In this document: piece after piece, positions 2,221-37,897 of the stretch
Numbering within the stretch: position 1 is the stretch's first letter
Layout of the letters: each line of letters starts with the position of its first letter
Source: a virus
Taxonomy: Duplodnaviria; Caudoviricetes
Virus record (IMG/VR): IMGVR_UViG_3300021400_001319
Span: 1-64,000 of that record
Strand: one strand, 5' to 3'
Length of the DNA stretch: 64,000 nucleotides
Position numbers and translations under genes: made by a program
The notes under the pieces: model-generated
The model's database searches: none
Told to the model about the DNA's origin: nothing
What the model saw: the letters and a program-made list of their open reading frames with translations, nothing else

Positions 2221-2412
2221 ATGAAATATGTAAACTATGACCAAAATTGGTATGACGTTATGCGAGAGTTAATTGAAACCTCAGTTGATGGGAAGTTCAG
2301 TTTTAAAAGTTCTGTTAATAAAGAGGATAAGCAATATTGGGTTGAAGCCACTTGTACCGTTAAGGAATTACAGTTTGAAGAAGAAAACGTATTTATTCCT
2401 ATGAGCGAGTAG
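2221..2412 (+). CDS. hypothetical protein
   Basis: ORF track. Confidence 0.6.
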   Translation: MKYVNYDQNWYDVMRELIETSVDGKFSFKSSVNKEDKQYWVEATCTVKELQFEEENVFIPMSE

Positions 2413-2429
2413 AAAGTGAGGGATAAGGA

Positions 2430-2819
2430 ATGACAAGAGAACAGGCCATTGAGCATGGAAAAGAACAACTTGAGATTTTTGGCGGAGAACATAAAGAGTT
2501 TATCGAGTTGGCAATCAAAGCACTAGAGCAAGAGCCTTGTAAGGATTGTATCAGCAGAGAAGCGGTACTTAATTTATTTAATAAATCAGATGATTATAGA
2601 TGGGAAACTACTTTAATAAGAAAGAAGATTGAAAAAATGCCCTCAGTAACACCACAAGAGCCAAGAAAAGGGCATTGGATAGAATGTATGCCAGGAGGTG
2701 CAGAAGAATGGTGTTATAAATGTTCAGAGTGTAATTTTTGGAAGTATAAAAAGACTATCAATTTGAGCAAATTTAAGTTTTGCCCTAACTGCGGTGCAAA
2801 GATGGAGGTAAAGGAATGA
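2430..2819 (+). CDS. hypothetical protein with zinc-ribbon (CSEC...CPNCG)
   Basis: ORF track; paralog of the C-terminal half of 829..1341. Confidence 0.75.
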   Translation: MTREQAIEHGKEQLEIFGGEHKEFIELAIKALEQEPCKDCISREAVLNLFNKSDDYRWETTLIRKKIEKMPSVTPQEPRKGHWIECMPGGAEEWCYKCSECNFWKYKKTINLSKFKFCPNCGAKMEVKE

Positions 2820-3313
2820 CAAGAGAAGAAAAGATAAAGGGCTTGTATAGTTTAAAAGAATATCTGGTAGAAAATCCTATAGAATTTGAAGGACATAATA
2901 AATCGTTGCCAATTACTTTAATTGATTATGCTATTGAAGCCCTAGAGCAACAACCTTGTGAAACAATAAAAGAAATACCTCAAGACTATAAGTACGACAC
3001 AGAAACGGAAGATTTTTTAGTGTATCGTCATATATACACAGGGCACGAGATACATATTGAAAAGCCTGTGCCAAGATATAGATTAGAGCAAGAGCCATTC
3101 ATCAATAAGTCATGTGTATCTAGTGGAGTATGTGAACATGATAAGCAGAAGGTATTAGACAAGATAAGAGCCGAGATTGAGAAATTACAGAAAATGTGCG
3201 ACAAGAACGATTTGAATTTGATGGCACAGTATTCAGCATTTGGCATGGTATTACAGATTCTTGATAAGTACAAGGCAGAAAGTGAGGGAGAAAATGACAC
3301 GGATAGAACATGA
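2816..3313 (+). CDS. hypothetical phage protein (MTREE...KYKAESEG family)
   Basis: ORF track; ATGA overlap. Confidence 0.75.
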   Translation: MTREEKIKGLYSLKEYLVENPIEFEGHNKSLPITLIDYAIEALEQQPCETIKEIPQDYKYDTETEDFLVYRHIYTGHEIHIEKPVPRYRLEQEPFINKSCVSSGVCEHDKQKVLDKIRAEIEKLQKMCDKNDLNLMAQYSAFGMVLQILDKYKAESEGENDTDRT

Positions 3314-3455
3314 TAAGATAATAAATCTAATGAAGCATGGAGCATTACAAGGCATTGATACAGGCAGACTTGATGGAAAATGCGAAGATGTAATACCTCT
3401 TGAAGATGCTATTGCTATTATTGATTTAGTTTACAAGGCAGAAACGGAGAAATAA
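3294..3455 (+). CDS. hypothetical protein
   Basis: ORF track (3240) re-started at ATG 3294 after GAGGGAG. Confidence 0.55.
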   Translation: MTRIEHDKIINLMKHGALQGIDTGRLDGKCEDVIPLEDAIAIIDLVYKAETEK

Positions 3456-3592
3456 ATGCAACCAATATTCACAGCAGATTGGAACGAACAATTTATTGGA
3501 ATAGCTTTTTACTGTGGGTTTTTCAATGAAGAAAATACTTTCGAGATAACATTACAAATAGGGTGGTTAGAATTAAGTATAGGAGTGAAATT

Positions 3593-3799
3593 ATGAAATA
3601 CAAATGTATTAAATCTTTTGATATTGAGGATAAAAGAAAAGGCACATACACAGTTAATAAAGGCGAAATATGGGAAGTACATGATGGTATCAGACTTATT
3701 CTCAAAAGAAAAGGGATTGGAATAGGAGTTATGCCTTATCATATTCTGCAATGCTTTGAAGAAGTGAAGGAAAGTGAGGCAGAAGATGGGAATGATTAA
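3593..3799 (+). CDS. hypothetical protein
   Basis: ORF track (3563) re-started at ATG 3593 after AGGAG. Confidence 0.6.
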   Translation: MKYKCIKSFDIEDKRKGTYTVNKGEIWEVHDGIRLILKRKGIGIGVMPYHILQCFEEVKESEAEDGND

Positions 3800-4172
3800 A
3801 AGATTGATAGCATACTTAAAGCGTCCGAAGTGTCCTAATCATTATTATTGTCCCGATTGCATACATAGCGACCAACATTGGGAAGGAATACGATTTAGAG
3901 GCTTTAGTTGCAGAATAAATGCGAGGTAGAAGATGGGAATAACAATTAACATAACCGAGGGCATTAACGACTATGAATTTTACAATGTACCAGAAAAAGT
4001 AGCAAAGGCAATAATCACACTTTTGCATGAGTGTGAAAAGGATGATAGCACTATTGTTTCAGCTATTAGCGAGAGGTAAAAGATGGGAATAATAATTAAA
4101 TACATAGTAGTAGCAATCTGCGGTTGGATATTTGGAAAGAGCATGGCTTATTTAGTAGGAATGAGGTGAAAG

Positions 4173-24907: not shown

Positions 24908-25402
24908 TCAGGCGCTTATCACTGTAACAAGAGAGGTCAAAACATCTATCTTTGCTTCCAAATCTTTGATTGTGTTCTGCATTGCTTCAAGCTTTGCGCT
25001 TACACTGGAAGCAAGCTCATAATTATCCCAAGGCTTTACCTCAAAGGATGCACTTCTGCTCCTTAATACCTGACGGTCTAAAACACTTGAGTTGTCAGAA
25101 TTTGTATATGCAAACTCAAGCCATATCTCTACAGTACCTGCCATATCTGTAATAGCAGTGGTAACAGGAAGAATATATTCAAGATAGTTATCCTTGTCAC
25201 TAATAGCTGATTCAAGAATTTCTGAATACACATTGTTCCCGGAATCTTTGTAGAAGAGAGTAGCGGAGAACAAAGACATATCACTATCTTCATAGTACGT
25301 AGGGACATAAATCTTCAGTTTATCAACCAAGTTTTCGCCCTGCATAATTGTACTTACTGAGTTGATCTGTAATGTTTTGTCATTCTTTAAGAGTATTACC
25401 AT
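24908..25402 (-). CDS. BppU-N-like baseplate/tail accessory protein
   Basis: STIMQGENLVDKL...ILPVT..IT..AG.VE motif. Confidence 0.6.
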   Translation of the reverse strand: MVILLKNDKTLQINSVSTIMQGENLVDKLKIYVPTYYEDSDMSLFSATLFYKDSGNNVYSEILESAISDKDNYLEYILPVTTAITDMAGTVEIWLEFAYTNSDNSSVLDRQVLRSRSASFEVKPWDNYELASSVSAKLEAMQNTIKDLEAKIDVLTSLVTVISA

Positions 25403-25500
25403 TAAAGGCCTCCTTCCATACAAAAAGGAACAGCATTTTAAACTGTCCCTTGTTGATAAATTTGTTGTTTTAGATTAAACTTATTTTGTTAGGGAATAAG

Positions 25501-26367
25501 TTATCTTATTTCTGGCGCGCTGGTTCTCTCTGTAGGCTGGTGCGCTTTTTGTTTTATCATATCAATTATTTCTTCTGTTGTTACTGATTCTTTATCCGCA
25601 AGATGCTCGGCTAGATCCTCGTCATTCCAAATGATGCCTTTCGCCCTGTCTTCTTCACGCATTTCTCTAAGATATCTATAAAATGTTGACTTGGTAATCT
25701 GGGCAATAGTATAGCATTGCGTGGCAGTTAGTTCCCCACCAAATAATTGAAAGTGTTTTCGTATTATTCTCTTTGCTCTTTTTGATTTCTTGGTGATTAG
25801 CTTTTGTCCAGGTTGCCTTCCCACCTTAGAACCCATCAGTTTGGCTTTCTTCAACCCTTCAGAAGTACGTTGTGATAATAATTCTCGCTCTTTCTGTGCA
25901 TGCTCAAAGGCTAAATATATCTGTCTCTCAGCTACAGATAGGAGATAGTCATTAAGGCCGCCTATCACAGTATCAATAAGTTTTGCTGTTTCCTCGTCCA
26001 TACCTTCTGTAGCAATCTCAATCTTTCGCTCAGAAGCATCACGATATATCTTACTGTTAATATGAGGTTCTTTGAGAAATTCCAATTCAATACCTAGATT
26101 ATAGAGCTCTTTGTATTCCACTATAGCCTCTTCAGCATTTCTTGAAAATCTTGATACTTCGTCAAAAACCAACTTCTCAACAGCACCGAGCCTGCATTGT
26201 CTCATGAGCTTCTTCCACCTTGGTCTATTATCAGTGCTGCCGGTATATACCTCACTGATAACTACAATGTCTGGGTATGCCTCTTTCAAATTGTCAATCT
26301 GCCTGCGTAATTTTTGCTTTGGCGTAGATACTCTTGCATACCCCACTATCATTTTCTTTTGATCCAT
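25501..26367 (-). CDS. serine recombinase (resolvase/invertase family) with C-terminal HTH
   Basis: GYARVST (catalytic Ser), VFDEVSRFSRN, ER....RT.EG, ITKSTFYRY; AAGGAGG RBS. Confidence 0.92.
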   Translation of the reverse strand: MDQKKMIVGYARVSTPKQKLRRQIDNLKEAYPDIVVISEVYTGSTDNRPRWKKLMRQCRLGAVEKLVFDEVSRFSRNAEEAIVEYKELYNLGIELEFLKEPHINSKIYRDASERKIEIATEGMDEETAKLIDTVIGGLNDYLLSVAERQIYLAFEHAQKERELLSQRTSEGLKKAKLMGSKVGRQPGQKLITKKSKRAKRIIRKHFQLFGGELTATQCYTIAQITKSTFYRYLREMREEDRAKGIIWNDEDLAEHLADKESVTTEEIIDMIKQKAHQPTERTSAPEIR

Positions 26368-26509
26368 AAAACCCTCCTTTTTTATTCGTGTATCGGTTTT
26401 ATTTAGAGGGGTTTAAATAGAACTTTTGCACAATCATAATTGCGATAAATAGTAAATGTGCCATGGGTTATGCAGATTTAAGACATAGCTGATTACTGTT
26501 CTATTTGTT

Positions 26510-26875
26510 GGAACGACTCCTACATTATTATGGACTAATCCAAATCCAACTTCTACTATGGCAAAAACTACAATTTCCATCAATGTTACAATATATAGTC
26601 ATATAATAATATTACTAATAGCTAGTAACAGCTCCGATGTAGAGCAATATTGCCTAGTACCTGTTGCTTCCATACCCACAGTTACGAGTGGTTCGTGGTA
26701 CCCTATTAGTGCAGGCAGATTTGAATCTAGTGGTTCCAAATTCTACGGTTTTACAAGAGGACTAAATGGAAAAACAACAAGTTCTATACAGGTTTCAGGT
26801 GGTTATAGAGAATCTCAAACATATGACGGTCATTGTATACCATATAAGATATGGGGTATCAATTTAACTTTTTAA
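26510..26875 (+). CDS. silent variable cassette A (no native start; LWTNP-type tail-associated domain)
   Basis: frame open from 26489 with GTTPTLLWTNPNP upstream of the track ATG (26558); no RBS; homologous to 27658..28062. Confidence 0.7.
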   Translation, partial: GTTPTLLWTNPNPTSTMAKTTISINVTIYSHIIILLIASNSSDVEQYCLVPVASIPTVTSGSWYPISAGRFESSGSKFYGFTRGLNGKTTSSIQVSGGYRESQTYDGHCIPYKIWGINLTF

Positions 26876-26890
26876 ATAGCCTTATTTTGT

Positions 26891-27214
26891 CGAACAGCAT
26901 TTAAGAAATATGTTTTAATTTCCAAATCACATAATAGTTCTATATCGTGTTGTCTTATCTATAATGGAGGCAGTGTTATTGCAGATACTGGTACTATAGC
27001 AGCAGTAGGATCAACAAGTGACCTACTTCACTGGGCTTCAGTTACTACTAATTATTTGACTTATACTGCTCAAGTAGATTGTCATGTACTTGGTGCAAAC
27101 GGTAATTCTGATACTAGTACTACAAATATATCAGGCGACTATACAGCAGGACAAACATTCAAAATTAAAAATGTAGCAAGCGGTCCACTGTGCTGCATAT
27201 TTGCATGGATCTAA
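26891..27214 (+). CDS. silent variable cassette B (no ATG; Ser/Thr-rich)
   Basis: hand-translated open frame RTAFKKYVLISKSHNSSISCCLIYNGGSVIADTG...GPLCCIFAWI*; missed by the ORF track. Confidence 0.6.
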   Translation, partial: RTAFKKYVLISKSHNSSISCCLIYNGGSVIADTGTIAAVGSTSDLLHWASVTTNYLTYTAQVDCHVLGANGNSDTSTTNISGDYTAGQTFKIKNVASGPLCCIFAWI

Positions 27215-27296
27215 GATAATTAAACACGCCTCATACTAATGCCTTTTATATTTATATCAAAGGCTAACATAAGCTTTAGCGATGTGAATATGTCAA

Positions 27297-27656
27297 TTAC
27301 GCTGGTTCAAACAATAAAACTAAACCACTGTGTTGATATTCAGAGAACGTAAGACTTGATGAAGTAAAGTTATACAGTACAGTTTTAGTATTGCTGCCAA
27401 ATGTTTCACACACGTATAGAGTTCCTGGTGCTGTGCTAGTAAACGTTGTATTTTTATTTGATGAAGAACTATTAGCAACGGACATAGTTATTTCGTCTAC
27501 TGTAATAGTTTGTTTTCCACTATTACCGACTCCTCCTATTTTACCGATTGAACAAATAGGAGTATAATTTCTTGTAATTCCCCACAAAGCTCTATATCCG
27601 TCGCCAAATCCGCTTCGTGAATATGAAAGTATAGTATATTTCATTTCATCCGTTCG
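27297..27656 (-). CDS. silent variable cassette C
   Basis: track ORF 27297..27644 extends in frame to CGA-ACG at 27656; no clear RBS. Confidence 0.6.
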   Translation of the reverse strand, partial: RTDEMKYTILSYSRSGFGDGYRALWGITRNYTPICSIGKIGGVGNSGKQTITVDEITMSVANSSSSNKNTTFTSTAPGTLYVCETFGSNTKTVLYNFTSSSLTFSEYQHSGLVLLFEPA

Positions 27657-27657
27657 T

Positions 27658-28062
27658 TTATTTCATTCCTATAATTGCTAATGGAATTAGAGTTGAATTA
27701 TTGGGAGTTTCGCCTGCCAGTGCCAGAGAAGCCTTAAAATTTAGTGTCATATCTGATACACGATATATTGTTCGTTTATATGGACTTGTCCCAGAGCGAG
27801 TAGCTATTATCCCAAAAGGTTTATCACTCGTACTAGTACTTGCTGCCCATTTTTGAATTTCTGTCATCGGATACATAACTCTATATACATCAGATAGATT
27901 GCTTCTATTGCGAGCATAAGTAAATGCAATATATTCAAAATTTGCTATACTTTGACTTAATGTCACATCTTGTGCTGGAAATGTCGCAGACGGATCTGGG
28001 TTAGTCCAAAGTGTAGTTTCTGATAATGTTCCTCCAGATGTTCCACATCTATAAAATGCCAT
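27658..28062 (-). CDS. expressed cassette gene (MAFYRCG + LWTNP-type domain), putative adhesin/receptor-binding accessory protein
   Basis: AAGGAGGTG RBS optimally spaced to ATG 28062; TTLWTNPDP...IPLAIIG. Confidence 0.75.
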   Translation of the reverse strand: MAFYRCGTSGGTLSETTLWTNPDPSATFPAQDVTLSQSIANFEYIAFTYARNRSNLSDVYRVMYPMTEIQKWAASTSTSDKPFGIIATRSGTSPYKRTIYRVSDMTLNFKASLALAGETPNNSTLIPLAIIGMK

Positions 28063-28175
28063 AAGCATTCACCTCCTTGATGTTTAGGCCCTTCAACATA
28101 GGGCTAAATCGAACTGTTTTATTATTTGTTATTTTGTCTTGCATTGTTTTATGATCTTTTATTTTTTTTAGAAAA

Positions 28176-28197
28176 GGAGAGGGCAGTACCCTCTCCG
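28176..28197 (-). terminator. intrinsic terminator
   Basis: GGAGAGGG-tactg-CCCTCTCC followed by a T tract on the minus strand; near-identical copy at ~34228-34251. Confidence 0.7.
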
Positions 28198-29066: not shown

Positions 29067-29924
29067 TTATGTTGTTTTGGTGTATTGGATTGTTACATAA
29101 TATGTTGAAGAAGAAGTAAACCACGCATTAATAAGCGCAAGTTGATTTTTGTAACTCGTATCGGCAGATGTATTAGTATGTCCTATAAATCTTAGAGTAG
29201 CACTTATGTCACCTCTACATGCGCTTATAGGAAAGTACATACCACTAAATAGAACACCTCCTTCTATATTTACAAATGTATCAACTTTCGCACCCATGCT
29301 TACAAATGTTGTGGTTTCAGTTCCAACTTTATTAGTAGCAGTTAATGTTCCTTTAAATGTTTTCTGATAAATCGGTTTTCCATCAATCCAAGTACCTACT
29401 ATCTTTTCTGATGTAGAGTAATCATTTTCATCTGCGTATTTGAAGGAGTTGGCGCTGTCGGTGGTTTTGGTGTATTGGATAGTCACATAAGTTTCTGTAA
29501 ATGCGCTTCTATCTGTACCTGTAGTTATTCTTATTACATTTGATGAAGCAACATAAACTAAATCAACAGATGCAACGTTACTTCCACTAATAGTTTTATC
29601 AACATATGGAAGGGGCAATATCAGACCATCTGTATTGCGTCTTGAATATCCTTCAATATTGATAACACGATTTATAGATGAAACACCTGTAGCTATTGTA
29701 GTAACACTATTATTAGGTAATGCTCCGCAACTAATTGTCTTTTGATAGATTGGTCTTCCATCTGTCCAACAACCAACTATTTTCTCTGTAGTAGAATATA
29801 AATCTGCTCTACTAAACTTATTAGCTAATACCTCGGGCATACCACCAAGATAAGGAAAGATGCCCCCGTAGAAATCTGCTAAGTCTTGCTTGGTTACTAC
29901 CTTGTCTGGATTTGTTACTGACAT
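29067..29924 (-). CDS. tail-associated protein with two YSTxEKIVGxWxDGxPIYQKT domains
   Basis: ORF track, AAGGAGG RBS, internal domain duplication. Confidence 0.75.
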   Translation of the reverse strand: MSVTNPDKVVTKQDLADFYGGIFPYLGGMPEVLANKFSRADLYSTTEKIVGCWTDGRPIYQKTISCGALPNNSVTTIATGVSSINRVINIEGYSRRNTDGLILPLPYVDKTISGSNVASVDLVYVASSNVIRITTGTDRSAFTETYVTIQYTKTTDSANSFKYADENDYSTSEKIVGTWIDGKPIYQKTFKGTLTATNKVGTETTTFVSMGAKVDTFVNIEGGVLFSGMYFPISACRGDISATLRFIGHTNTSADTSYKNQLALINAWFTSSSTYYVTIQYTKTT

Positions 29925-35163: not shown

Positions 35164-36360
35164 CTATGCACCTTGCTGTTTACATATGGTTTTTATTTCT
35201 TTGTGATATTTCCACACATAACCACCACAAGTCTTTCTTTTTCCATTGCACACATCTGCAATATGTTCTCTTCCAATCTCCGCTTGTGCAGCGGAGATAG
35301 AGGGATATGTTTTAACAAAATTGCCATCAAGAGTGAAACAATCGACTAATATAGCATTATTAGAGGTATAGTATTGGCGAGAATGTTTTAAGTTGTCTTG
35401 CAAATCAAAAGAGTATATGTAACCATGATAGCTATTTCTTCGATGCCTTAAATTATCAACAATTTTTTCACGCTCTTGAGGAGTACATTCAATTTGATAA
35501 ACATCGTTATACGAGGCAACCAAATTACCATTAAAAGAATATTTATACACCTTTTGGTTTCGATACTTGCATCTTGAATTATGAACATTTATAGTTTCTA
35601 GAATAAAACCACCATCACGCTTGTTAATAACATTATAATTAGCCAAGTACTTTTTGGATAAAGGAGTTACACTCCAATAATATCCATATGCGCTATTAGC
35701 TGAATGTTCGTCATCTAACACTTCAAAGATTTTTATAGCCCTGAATGATGTTTTGGACGCTAATTCTTTTAAGTTATTATACGTATGAACAAGATGCATT
35801 TCCCTATCGTATTGATAAATCTTTTGTTTTGAACACAACTTAAACTCCATATATTTTGAAAGTTTAGGCAAAGGATATAAATCGATTGATTCACCCTTCT
35901 TTCTCCATATATACCCTCCTGCTGAAAGTGCCAATCCGTTAGCAGAGTTATATATTCCAGTATGCGAAACTCGTGTGCTATTAGATGCAGCTCTGACAGA
36001 TGAATAGCTTTTTAGAAAATTTCCCTTTATATCATAACAATCAACAGGAACACTAAGCCCATCATCTCCACCTTTTGATACATTGTATCCATATCGTTTG
36101 TCATACGTTTTAAAATGCGCAATAAACTTTTTTTCTAGATAATATGCTTCTGCTTTTGTTAGACACTCAATTAAGATTATATGAGTTATATTATCCCATC
36201 CATATTTTTGTATAGCTCTCCAAAAATGTGCTTGAGTTTTATAACCACATCCAGTAGTACCCCACCTTTTTTGAGCGCCCATTCTTGTGATACCTATATA
36301 TCTTTTGGCATTTGGGGTTTTGTGCATATAAAGACTATACTCTCTAGTTTCGTTATCCAT
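35164..36360 (-). CDS. free-standing GIY-YIG endonuclease with NUMOD1-like repeats
   Basis: SLY...RYIG..R..RW...HF..AIQKYG.DN; four xxYxxxGxxxxxYxS-type repeats; CNGKRKTCGGYVW. Confidence 0.85.
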   Translation of the reverse strand: MDNETREYSLYMHKTPNAKRYIGITRMGAQKRWGTTGCGYKTQAHFWRAIQKYGWDNITHIILIECLTKAEAYYLEKKFIAHFKTYDKRYGYNVSKGGDDGLSVPVDCYDIKGNFLKSYSSVRAASNSTRVSHTGIYNSANGLALSAGGYIWRKKGESIDLYPLPKLSKYMEFKLCSKQKIYQYDREMHLVHTYNNLKELASKTSFRAIKIFEVLDDEHSANSAYGYYWSVTPLSKKYLANYNVINKRDGGFILETINVHNSRCKYRNQKVYKYSFNGNLVASYNDVYQIECTPQEREKIVDNLRHRRNSYHGYIYSFDLQDNLKHSRQYYTSNNAILVDCFTLDGNFVKTYPSISAAQAEIGREHIADVCNGKRKTCGGYVWKYHKEIKTICKQQGA

Positions 36361-37116: not shown

Positions 37117-37569
37117 TTACTGGTTAAAATAAAATACCTGCACTATCACGTTATTCTCCTGTGCTGGGAATGTGAGAGTGAGAGTAGTATCGGTGAGACT
37201 CATTGCTGTAGGAGATACACCATATACATTTGTCCAAATATCAAAGTGAGTCGTGTTTCCGAAATTACTATTTGTAAATTCTAATTTTGTTGAACCAGCG
37301 GGAAGTGTTGCAGACACATATTGATTAACTCTCTTATAAATACTGGCAACTACAGTTGCGTCTGCAGCAAAACCCTCATTTAGAACGGATGTAGAAGTTG
37401 TGATACCGTTGATATCGCCTAGCTTTGCCTGTGCTGTTTTGCCATCGTTAAACTCAACATCTTCTGCACTCGTCCATAAAGATAATTGATTCCACACAAA
37501 AGCACCCGGAGTGTTATCAACAAGAACTTTATAGGCTCGTCCTTTTATCTTATTTATCGTACTGCTCAT
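37117..37569 (-). CDS. tail-associated hypothetical protein
   Basis: ORF track re-started at MSST. Confidence 0.65.
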   Translation of the reverse strand: MSSTINKIKGRAYKVLVDNTPGAFVWNQLSLWTSAEDVEFNDGKTAQAKLGDINGITTSTSVLNEGFAADATVVASIYKRVNQYVSATLPAGSTKLEFTNSNFGNTTHFDIWTNVYGVSPTAMSLTDTTLTLTFPAQENNVIVQVFYFNQ

Positions 37570-37588
37570 GTTTTGTTCCTTTCTGTTA

Positions 37589-37897
37589 TTAAGTCCAACA
37601 ATAACCCTCTTCTTTATCCGTTGGCTCAATATCATTGTAAGTTGTTAAGTCTGGCTTATCCGTACCATGAACGATGTAGTTTTCAATAGCTATTAAACGT
37701 TCCTGAAGCATATTTAAAAGCCATGCTCCGTAAAATGAAATCTCATGTGTATTTAAGTATTCGCTTGCATCGCTATAATGGCCAATGGCAATCATTTCGT
37801 TGTATTGATCCATTATAGGCAACTTATCTATTGAAACGTCTTGAAAAAAACAAAGTTTATCAACATCGTCGGGAAAGACAGTTGAATAATCTTTCAT
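37589..37897 (-). CDS. hypothetical structural protein
   Basis: GAGGTG RBS; STVFPDDVD motif; similar to 37909 ORF. Confidence 0.65.
   Translation of the reverse strand: MKDYSTVFPDDVDKLCFFQDVSIDKLPIMDQYNEMIAIGHYSDASEYLNTHEISFYGAWLLNMLQERLIAIENYIVHGTDKPDLTTYNDIEPTDKEEGYCWT

Follow-up and report, generated by a model that had tools for sequence, protein, structure and literature searches.

The DNA considered here is a stretch of 64,000 nucleotides (nt), part of a 77-kb viral record (IMGVR_UViG_3300021400_001319) of a tailed phage, and is referred to throughout as the window. Between its tail-fibre genes and its lysis genes lies a locus which we judge, with a probability of roughly 0.88, to be a real and active shufflon operated by a serine recombinase. 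It comprises the recombinase gene, one small gene that has its own ribosome-binding site and start codon (gene D) and three further cassettes (A, B and C), and inversion between short crossover sites would place alternative cassettes behind a constant leader of 11 codons at the start of D. The architecture of the locus, the sites, the reading frame common to the cassettes, inversions with GAACA junctions in related loci and, for this phage, breaks of the assemblies at sites B and D are all in hand. The alternative products would act as receptor-binding tips, and exchange between them may change the host range of the phage.

Cassettes and recombinase of the locus

Read along the minus strand, the genes lie in the order tail-fibre genes, a gene for 221 amino acids (aa), D, C, then B and A on the opposite strand, the recombinase gene, a 171-aa gene and two genes for peptidoglycan hydrolases. 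Gene D (27658..28062, minus strand) encodes a protein of 134 aa that is made up of the constant leader MAFYRCGTSGG (28030..28062, minus strand), which is homologous to the leaders of related loci, and a beta-sandwich domain. The Shine-Dalgarno sequence GGAGG (28072..28076, minus strand; read from the sequence) lies 9 nt 5' of the ATG at 28062, and D alone among the four cassettes has a ribosome-binding site of this kind and an ATG together. Cassette C (27297..27656, minus strand) points in the same direction as D and extends for 119 codons from RT. Its start is doubtful: there is an in-frame ATG at 27644, five codons past the motif with which the cassettes start, with a weak GGA 4 nt upstream; gene callers predict C from this ATG as a 115-aa protein, and it may be translated independently from there. 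Cassettes A (26510..26875, plus strand; 121 codons from GT, with a D-type LWTNPNP domain) and B (26891..27214, plus strand; 107 codons from RT) are silent, having neither a start codon nor a ribosome-binding site at their 5' ends, and their open frames start 7 (A) and 5 (B) codons before the motif, directly after a stop codon. The motif itself is GGAACG in A, CGAACA in B, CGAACG in C and GGAACA in D, and it falls in one common frame, xGA-ACx. A and D are homologous (BLASTP E 5e-5, and also by tblastn). On sequence comparison B and C are orphans that match nothing else searched: no homologues of B were found in the searches, viral_contigs included, and homologue searches with A and C returned only their own called open reading frames (ORFs). 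A first-pass annotation of the window had listed the same five elements, on the same strands and at the same coordinates, and had described the strong ribosome-binding site and start of D, the motif and frame common to all four cassettes, the relationship of A to D and the unrelatedness of B and C; all of this was borne out. Its further view that A and B have no suitable starts at their 5' ends also holds, and for C the ATG at 27644 has to be added.

The small serine recombinase (25501..26367, minus strand), a presumed invertase of 288 aa, has an intact reading frame. Residues 7-123 match PF00239 (Pfam Resolvase; 1e-21), the protein matches PHROG 125 'DNA invertase' (1e-36), and its catalytic motif GYARVSTPKQ fits the pattern Y-x-R-V-S-T-x-x-Q with the serine nucleophile. 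The nearest solved structures are Sin/Bin3 (E 3.5e-8), Gin (4m6f) reaching just 6e-4, and judged by its sequence the enzyme is not of the Gin/Hin lineage. For a C-terminal helix-turn-helix DNA-binding domain there were only sub-threshold matches (HTH_7 E 0.075, HTH_5 E 0.061). Relatives of the recombinase in GTDB genomes are 42-43% identical and come from metagenome-assembled genomes of Clostridia, Oscillospiraceae and Eisenbergiella; these sequences only hint at the host group, and the host of the phage is probably a Gram-positive bacterium of Clostridia type. No cassette arrays are present beside the ~43%-identical GTDB recombinases, which form a separate, distant group. This last observation bears on another account of the locus, which takes D and C for ordinary small genes that are independent of each other and A and B for fragments of pseudogenes, and gives the recombinase some other purpose, for instance resolution or integration. 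Such an account draws on the ATG of C, which is called as a gene, and on stand-alone D-type proteins that occur without an evident shufflon (L044). It is opposed by the separateness of the recombinases that lack arrays, and by every point that speaks for a shufflon, and we find it scarcely credible.

Crossover sites and inversions in related loci

A search with the recombinase yielded five viral loci and then 33 metagenome loci (given L numbers here), with recombinases 62-94% identical. Their layout is like that of the window, consisting of fibre genes, one expressed gene, start-less frames of ~90-135 codons in both orientations and a recombinase gene, and in many of them cassette arrays adjoin the recombinase. 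A site matrix was built from 37 aligned silent sites of these relatives, with no window sequence in it. The positions conserved in the left arm are G-13, T-12, A-8, T-7, Y-6, T-5, A-3 and C/G-1, followed by GAACA, which gives a consensus of a ~13-bp left arm, GTaTTATyTnAn[C/G], and a core, GAAC[A/G]; conservation ends past +4, and the right half has none. When ~128,000 window positions were scanned with the matrix, site B (26878..26896, plus strand; left arm AGCCTTATTTTGTC, core GAACA) scored 15.2 and ranked 1, and site C (27651..27669, minus strand; GGAATGAAATAAAC, core GAACG), which overlaps the stop codon of D, scored 12.9 and ranked 2. Site A (26497..26515, plus strand; left arm TGTTCTATTTGTTG, core GAACG) followed at 11.2 and rank 7, and the expression site within D, termed D2 (28027..28045, minus strand; TGGAACATCTGGAG, core GAACA), at 9.6 and rank 15. 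With ranks of 1, 2, 7 and 15, the four sites of the window are beyond chance. They occur in both orientations and adjoin the recombinase gene, with cores at 26511 and 26892 on the plus strand and at 27655 and 28031 on the minus strand. A strict rule, which asks for ATYT-N4-G(WW)C and behind it an in-frame stretch of 70 or more open codons, gave seven hits in the window, three of which are A, B and D, and it found in-frame units in 19 of the 28 related loci that have at least 600 nt upstream. Long inverted repeats were absent from the locus in a generic repeat search; repeat finders overlook a system of this kind because its sites have only ~5-9 nt in common. There was also no DNA match to the region in the 'phages' collection.

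Two side observations concern the sites. A fifth site-like sequence, GAAAACATTTAAAG-GAACA (29346-29364, minus strand; matrix 11.7, rank 6), lies within a 285-aa fibre gene (29067-29924), in frame as ..TFKG|T.. with 94 codons to the stop, and sits in a repeated module, EKIVG.W.DGKPIYQKT...TIQYTKTT. It is probably due to chance, as two contigs of this phage described below (L052 and L053) pass through it unbroken. In addition, an alternative core, GTTC, seems to be used behind the same left arm in L008, L010, L019 and L038, and GTAC in L015. The recombinases of these relatives are 79-94% identical, and the contig behind L008 starts exactly at GTTCA.

The position of the crossover within D requires comment, since D contains two copies of GGAACA (28044-28039 and 28032-28027). 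The first-pass annotation had put the breakpoint at 28040-43 and the leader at 6-7 codons, MAFYRC(G), which amounts to crossover at the first copy. That copy offers the same GGAACA in the same frame, but its left arm misfits the matrix (-1.1, rank 602, against 9.6, rank 15, for the second). D2 aligns with TCTGGAGGAAC of the relatives' expression sites, and it is the second GGAACA that pairs with TCTGGAG-GAAC there; the relatives' expression sites themselves fit the same arm, as GTCCCATTTGGAG-GAAC in L005, L038 and L039 and as CAATCTGGAG-GAAC in L007. The protein alignment of A and D is likewise better with the second copy (GT-TPTLLW in A, GT-LSETTLW in D), and the contig ends at 28031, 28027 and 27977, to which we return below, are all tied to it. 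Crossover at the first copy is thus highly improbable. With the second GGAACA as the functional one, the breakpoint in D moves to 28031-28027, and the constant leader is therefore the 11 codons MAFYRCGTSGG.

Rearrangement at these sites can be seen directly amongst the relatives. All of the loci were oriented by their recombinase before comparison, and some cassettes then match in reverse. L006 1-94 is the reverse complement of L007 4145-4238 (100% identical), with co-linear flanks, and L006 from 90 onward corresponds to L007 from 4801 onward, the 5-nt overlap at the junction being GAACA. In the same way L020 2136-2890 is the reverse complement of L021 517-1271 (99.5% identical), and the same cassette is found behind two different left arms, joined at GAACA. 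Inversions with GAACA junctions are real in these relatives, and the alternative orientations on which the first-pass annotation had made its shufflon depend are present in both pairs. Furthermore, the upstream DNA of L004, L020 and L021 is 96-99% identical and the leader MPFVREQSGG is common to them up to GGAACA, past which they enter three different open cassettes, of 80, 91 and 101 codons; a short leader that serves several cassettes is therefore directly observed.

These observations are consistent with a mechanism in which the recombinase would join two short sites, each made up of arm and core, with exchange within the core GAAC[A/G]; an exchange point inside GAACA is what the relatives' junctions display. 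Serine recombinases make breaks that are staggered by 2 nt, and, because of this and because some relatives appear to have GTTC or GTAC cores, the cut would be expected at the central AA of the core. A centre that varies (TT, TA) is expected of an overlap dinucleotide that is unread by the protein. The expression site would lie within the codons ..S-G-G|T.. of the sole gene equipped with both a ribosome-binding site and an ATG, with sites of the opposite orientation preceding the start-less cassettes A and B and a site of the same orientation preceding C. The inversions possible would then be A-C, A-D, B-C and B-D: a single D-A or D-B inversion would suffice to bring A or B to the leader, and for C two would be needed, B-C and then D-C. 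The four products would each consist of MAFYRCGTSGG-T and a domain of ~105-122 residues, with lengths of 134, 131, 117 and 129 aa. C may switch poorly, because its site is without the ATYT block.

The arrays of the relatives can be considerably larger. L013 (700-4700) holds a tandem row of at least 12 silent cassettes that all point the same way, and L031 (700-4700) has one expressed and at least 10 silent cassettes in both orientations. The long same-orientation arrays of L013 and L031 would point to a bias against deletion between direct sites, of the kind found in topologically selective invertases. In L005, an IS200/IS605-type pair (2381-3923; a TnpA-like protein of 138 aa and a TnpB-like protein of 381 aa) is located between the expressed fibre gene and the silent cassettes.

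Contig ends of this phage at sites B and D

Contigs of this phage from other assemblies were retrieved by an exact-protein look-up and are 100% identical to the window. From Logan (SRR873599), L049 runs from 26896 down to 19501 (the extent of the locus fetched, the contig being longer), and a second Logan contig, L053, spans 30648-28027. From the ENA assembly ERZ28612966, L050 spans 26896-23002, L048 spans 28031-26842 and L052 runs from 31945 down to 27977 (again the fetched locus of a longer contig). Position 26896, at which both L049 and L050 stop, is the last base of the GAACA of site B, whilst 28031 and 28027, at which L048 starts and L053 ends, are the first and last bases of the second GAACA of D. 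The other end of L048, 26842, equals 26896 minus 54, the end of L052 at 27977 equals 28031 minus 54, and L048 overlaps with L050 and with L052 by exactly 55 nt each. Five contig ends from two assemblies are thus all tied to the cores of sites B and D. A repeat cannot be the cause of the breaks, because sites B and D have only GAACA (5 bp) in common. The ends would instead be edges of a de Bruijn graph that branches after L_B-GAACA, after leader-GAACA and before GAACA-D body, and a mixture of the parental order and a B-D inversion would give exactly this pattern; the junctions expected from that inversion would be ..TTATTTTGTCGAACA/TTATCAGAAAC.. (L_B-D body) and ..TCTGGAGGAACA/GCATTTAAG.. (leader-B). 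A third assembly, GCA_001684375.1, holds a 389-nt contig in which the same truncated D gene begins at base 2, and the start of this contig is placed at about 28030 from gene coordinates alone. No breaks at site A or C occur among this phage's contigs, and L051, from another sample, has the parental order across sites A and B. Taken with the relatives' GAACA inversions and the three cassettes behind one 10-codon leader, the contig ends at B and D support the earlier proposal of a shufflon that fuses cassettes to a short leader; they also suggest that shufflon activity is readable from the break points of independent metagenome assemblies.

Several points weigh against an active shufflon in this phage. 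A recombinant junction was not seen: no contig or protein fuses the leader to A, B or C, and the predicted leader-A junction pattern had no match in viral_contigs. The argument from contig ends is one about assembly graphs, and Logan and ENA may have assembled one and the same set of reads, in which case the assemblers are independent and the samples not necessarily so. The scores of the window sites (9.6-15.2) are below those of most of the relatives' sites (10.5-24.7). Of the four sites, C is the weakest; its left arm has no ATYT block, and the strict rule misses it. The unconserved right half is unusual for a site bound by a serine-recombinase dimer. Finally, a promoter search on the downstream side of the terminator at 28176-28196 revealed nothing sigma-70-like for D.

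Some of these points would be expected of a frozen relic, in which the cassettes and sites of an ancestral shufflon persist and no inversion takes place in this phage today. The weaker sites of the window fit such a relic, as do the missing recombinant junction and the parental order of L051 through sites A and B. An intact recombinase does not, and nor do open frames of 121 (A) and 107 (B) codons without a start at 38% G+C, for which our own estimate of chance occurrence is ~3e-4 to 7e-4 each, or five contig ends in two assemblies that fall exactly on the B and D cores; we therefore consider a relic very unlikely. It might also be argued that the breaks reflect co-existing strains with different cassette sets, recombination being rare and spread over evolutionary time, and there are indeed relatives whose flanks are nearly identical but whose cassettes differ in content as well as in orientation (L020 vs L021, L027 vs L028). 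The ENA graph, however, needs alternatives both upstream of the D body and after L_B-GAACA, which one B-D inversion covers together, and the exchange points would be recombinase sites even so. This explanation is also given only a small chance, and an active serine-recombinase shufflon remains the preferred reading of the locus.

Products, surroundings and known systems

The AlphaFold model of D (23-row alignment) has a predicted local distance difference test (pLDDT) score of 91.4 and forms an eight-strand beta-sandwich, residues 1-10 being disordered. Foldseek matched it to the C-terminal domains of phage K gp144 and to a phi812 baseplate protein (E 5e-5, template modelling (TM) score ~0.54), and further fold matches were a monocin side fibre and, in BFVD, both stand-alone phage proteins of ~130 aa and proteins annotated as tail fibres. 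The modelled fold is like that of the receptor-binding tips of Gram-positive phage fibres, and it is likely that the cassette products are receptor-binding tips. Against this role it has to be held that the evidence for it is this similarity of fold, at a TM score of ~0.54, and that no virion partner of D was identified. The structure prediction proposed for the cassette products was informative for D and failed for B, which modelled alone gave an unusable pLDDT of 36. In a complex prediction, D was paired with a 151-aa fibre protein (37120-37572), picked as partner because in L007 and L004 the short-leader gene is immediately preceded by a homologue of it; the score of 0.07 gave no verdict and is uninformative on binding.

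The D family is large, with 916 representative hits at E <=0.001 and 225 at 1e-10. Many of its members are stand-alone proteins of 127-142 aa that begin MA[FLYW][YFIV][RK][CT], followed by a glycine run and (S/T)ET.LWTN, and others carry the domain twice, or C-terminally in longer proteins. Two tandem D-type domains are found in many members, among them P0002, P0004, P0007, P0009 and P0012, with the linker ..LGLNELDHGK(R/K)FDET.LW.., which suggests that the domain is a stackable module. Homologues of the leader include MAFFRCDSGGG (L031), MAFFDCQSGG (L007) and MPFVREQSGG (L004). In L038, L039 and L005 the same site ends a constant fibre domain of ~120-170 aa, at ..(S/T)(E/G)FVPFGG|(S/T), and because the site coincides with the ..EFVPFGG of this long domain, the short leader is homologous to the domain's last residues; the genome of the present phage contains no homologue of this long domain as found in L038. 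The conservation of ..SGG-T in the leader is due in part to the DNA site that encodes it. The MAFYRC part is conserved across the D protein family at large, and it is for this reason that it is proposed as the docking element by which the products would be held on the virion. More tentatively, and with less than even confidence on our part, the leader MAF(Y/F)(R/D)C..GG could be a general docking tag, such that any domain of ~100 aa behind it would be tail-mounted; this phage, and the relatives with 12 or more cassettes, would then plug structurally unrelated receptor-binding modules into a single expression site. If so, display through the tag would have more in common with the expression site of antigen variation than with the classical exchange of fibre C-termini. 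Should the leader suffice for mounting on the virion, it would be a natural tag of minimal size with which binding domains of any kind could be displayed on the tail of a phage, useful for host-range engineering in laboratory phage-bacterium systems, and it would help to account for the way in which phages living in complex anaerobic communities deal with host surfaces that vary.

With regard to the surroundings of the locus, the tail-fibre genes occupy 32449-29067 (minus strand), and the 221-aa gene upstream of D (minus strand) encodes a protein with membrane and coiled-coil segments. A terminator-like hairpin (28176..28196, minus strand) lies between this gene and D, so that D is set apart from the upstream gene, and the interval 28069-28196 is without a sigma-70-like promoter match. 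A second terminator-like hairpin (25425..25451, minus strand) is found 3' of the recombinase gene. Further downstream is the 171-aa gene (24908-25423, minus strand), which has a 46% identical homologue in L031 (160-609), directly upstream of the expressed cassette; this gene therefore follows the shufflon module in the window and precedes it in L031. A small fibre protein (37117-37635, minus strand), which is 9 kb from D in the window, has homologues in L007 (3083-3664) and L004 (1902-2531) directly upstream of the short-leader gene. Amongst the tail-fibre genes there is also a 398-aa ORF (35164-36360, minus strand) that, examined by eye, resembles a homing endonuclease of GIY-YIG type in which DNA-binding modules are repeated.

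Only a few tail-fibre shufflons of phages have been described so far, and the classical ones swap only the end of a long fibre protein. Crossover sites of the classical Gin/Hin type are 26-bp imperfect palindromes; the present site has a 13-bp arm on one side and GAAC, and no two-armed palindrome is seen across the 37 sites. The present recombinase is, moreover, of another lineage than Gin and Hin and is ~100 aa longer. The fibre switches of the serine invertases Gin (Mu), Cin (P1), Pin (e14) and Min (p15B) are established and affect host range (PMC6109161). According to the same paper, Min, Gin, Cin, Pin and Hin resemble the present system in that the serine recombinase gene lies beside the invertible DNA, and the Min/Gin group does so too in having several crossover sites in both orientations and one expression site to which different 3' portions of a tail-fibre gene can be fused. 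Here the constant part has 11 codons, in the Min/Gin group hundreds, and relatives of the present system, unlike that group, hold up to 12 or more cassettes.

The Rin system of Bifidobacterium prophages uses a tyrosine recombinase, cassettes of 6-30% identity and 11-bp asymmetric sites, and its inversions were detected by comparing prophage and virion genomes (PMC6109161). Like the system described here, it is a receptor-binding shufflon of a Gram-positive phage with dissimilar cassettes and a short asymmetric site before each; it differs in the class of its recombinase and in that its cassettes exchange no more than the C-terminal end of a receptor-binding protein whose constant part is long. 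BV01-like Phocaeicola phages have a tail-fibre shufflon with three cassettes and a 10-bp directional motif, all configurations of which occur in reads (PMC13596623). This, too, is a multi-cassette array beside a recombinase gene, with a directional motif and non-homologous cassettes for the distal end of a tail fibre, but the host belongs to the Bacteroidota, the cassettes number three, the constant fibre is long and the motif is TGGGAGAACT. In the R64/IncI shufflon (Rci, PilV), multiple inversions choose one C-terminal adhesin segment (PMC9881135); in contrast to the present case, the recombinase is a tyrosine recombinase, the target is the adhesin of a conjugative pilus and the constant N-terminus is long. 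The first-pass annotation had singled out the minimal constant region and the use of unrelated cassettes as unusual; the former stands, and the latter does not, since cassettes without homology to one another are found in the Rin and BV01 shufflons as well. A literature search found no paper on the clade to which this system belongs. The locus is the same kind of device as the Gin/Cin/Pin/Min, Rin and BV01 shufflons, and it differs from them in the non-Gin lineage of the recombinase, in the one-armed site, in the very large arrays of its relatives and, in the forms with a short leader, in the replacement of a whole protein behind 10-11 codons.

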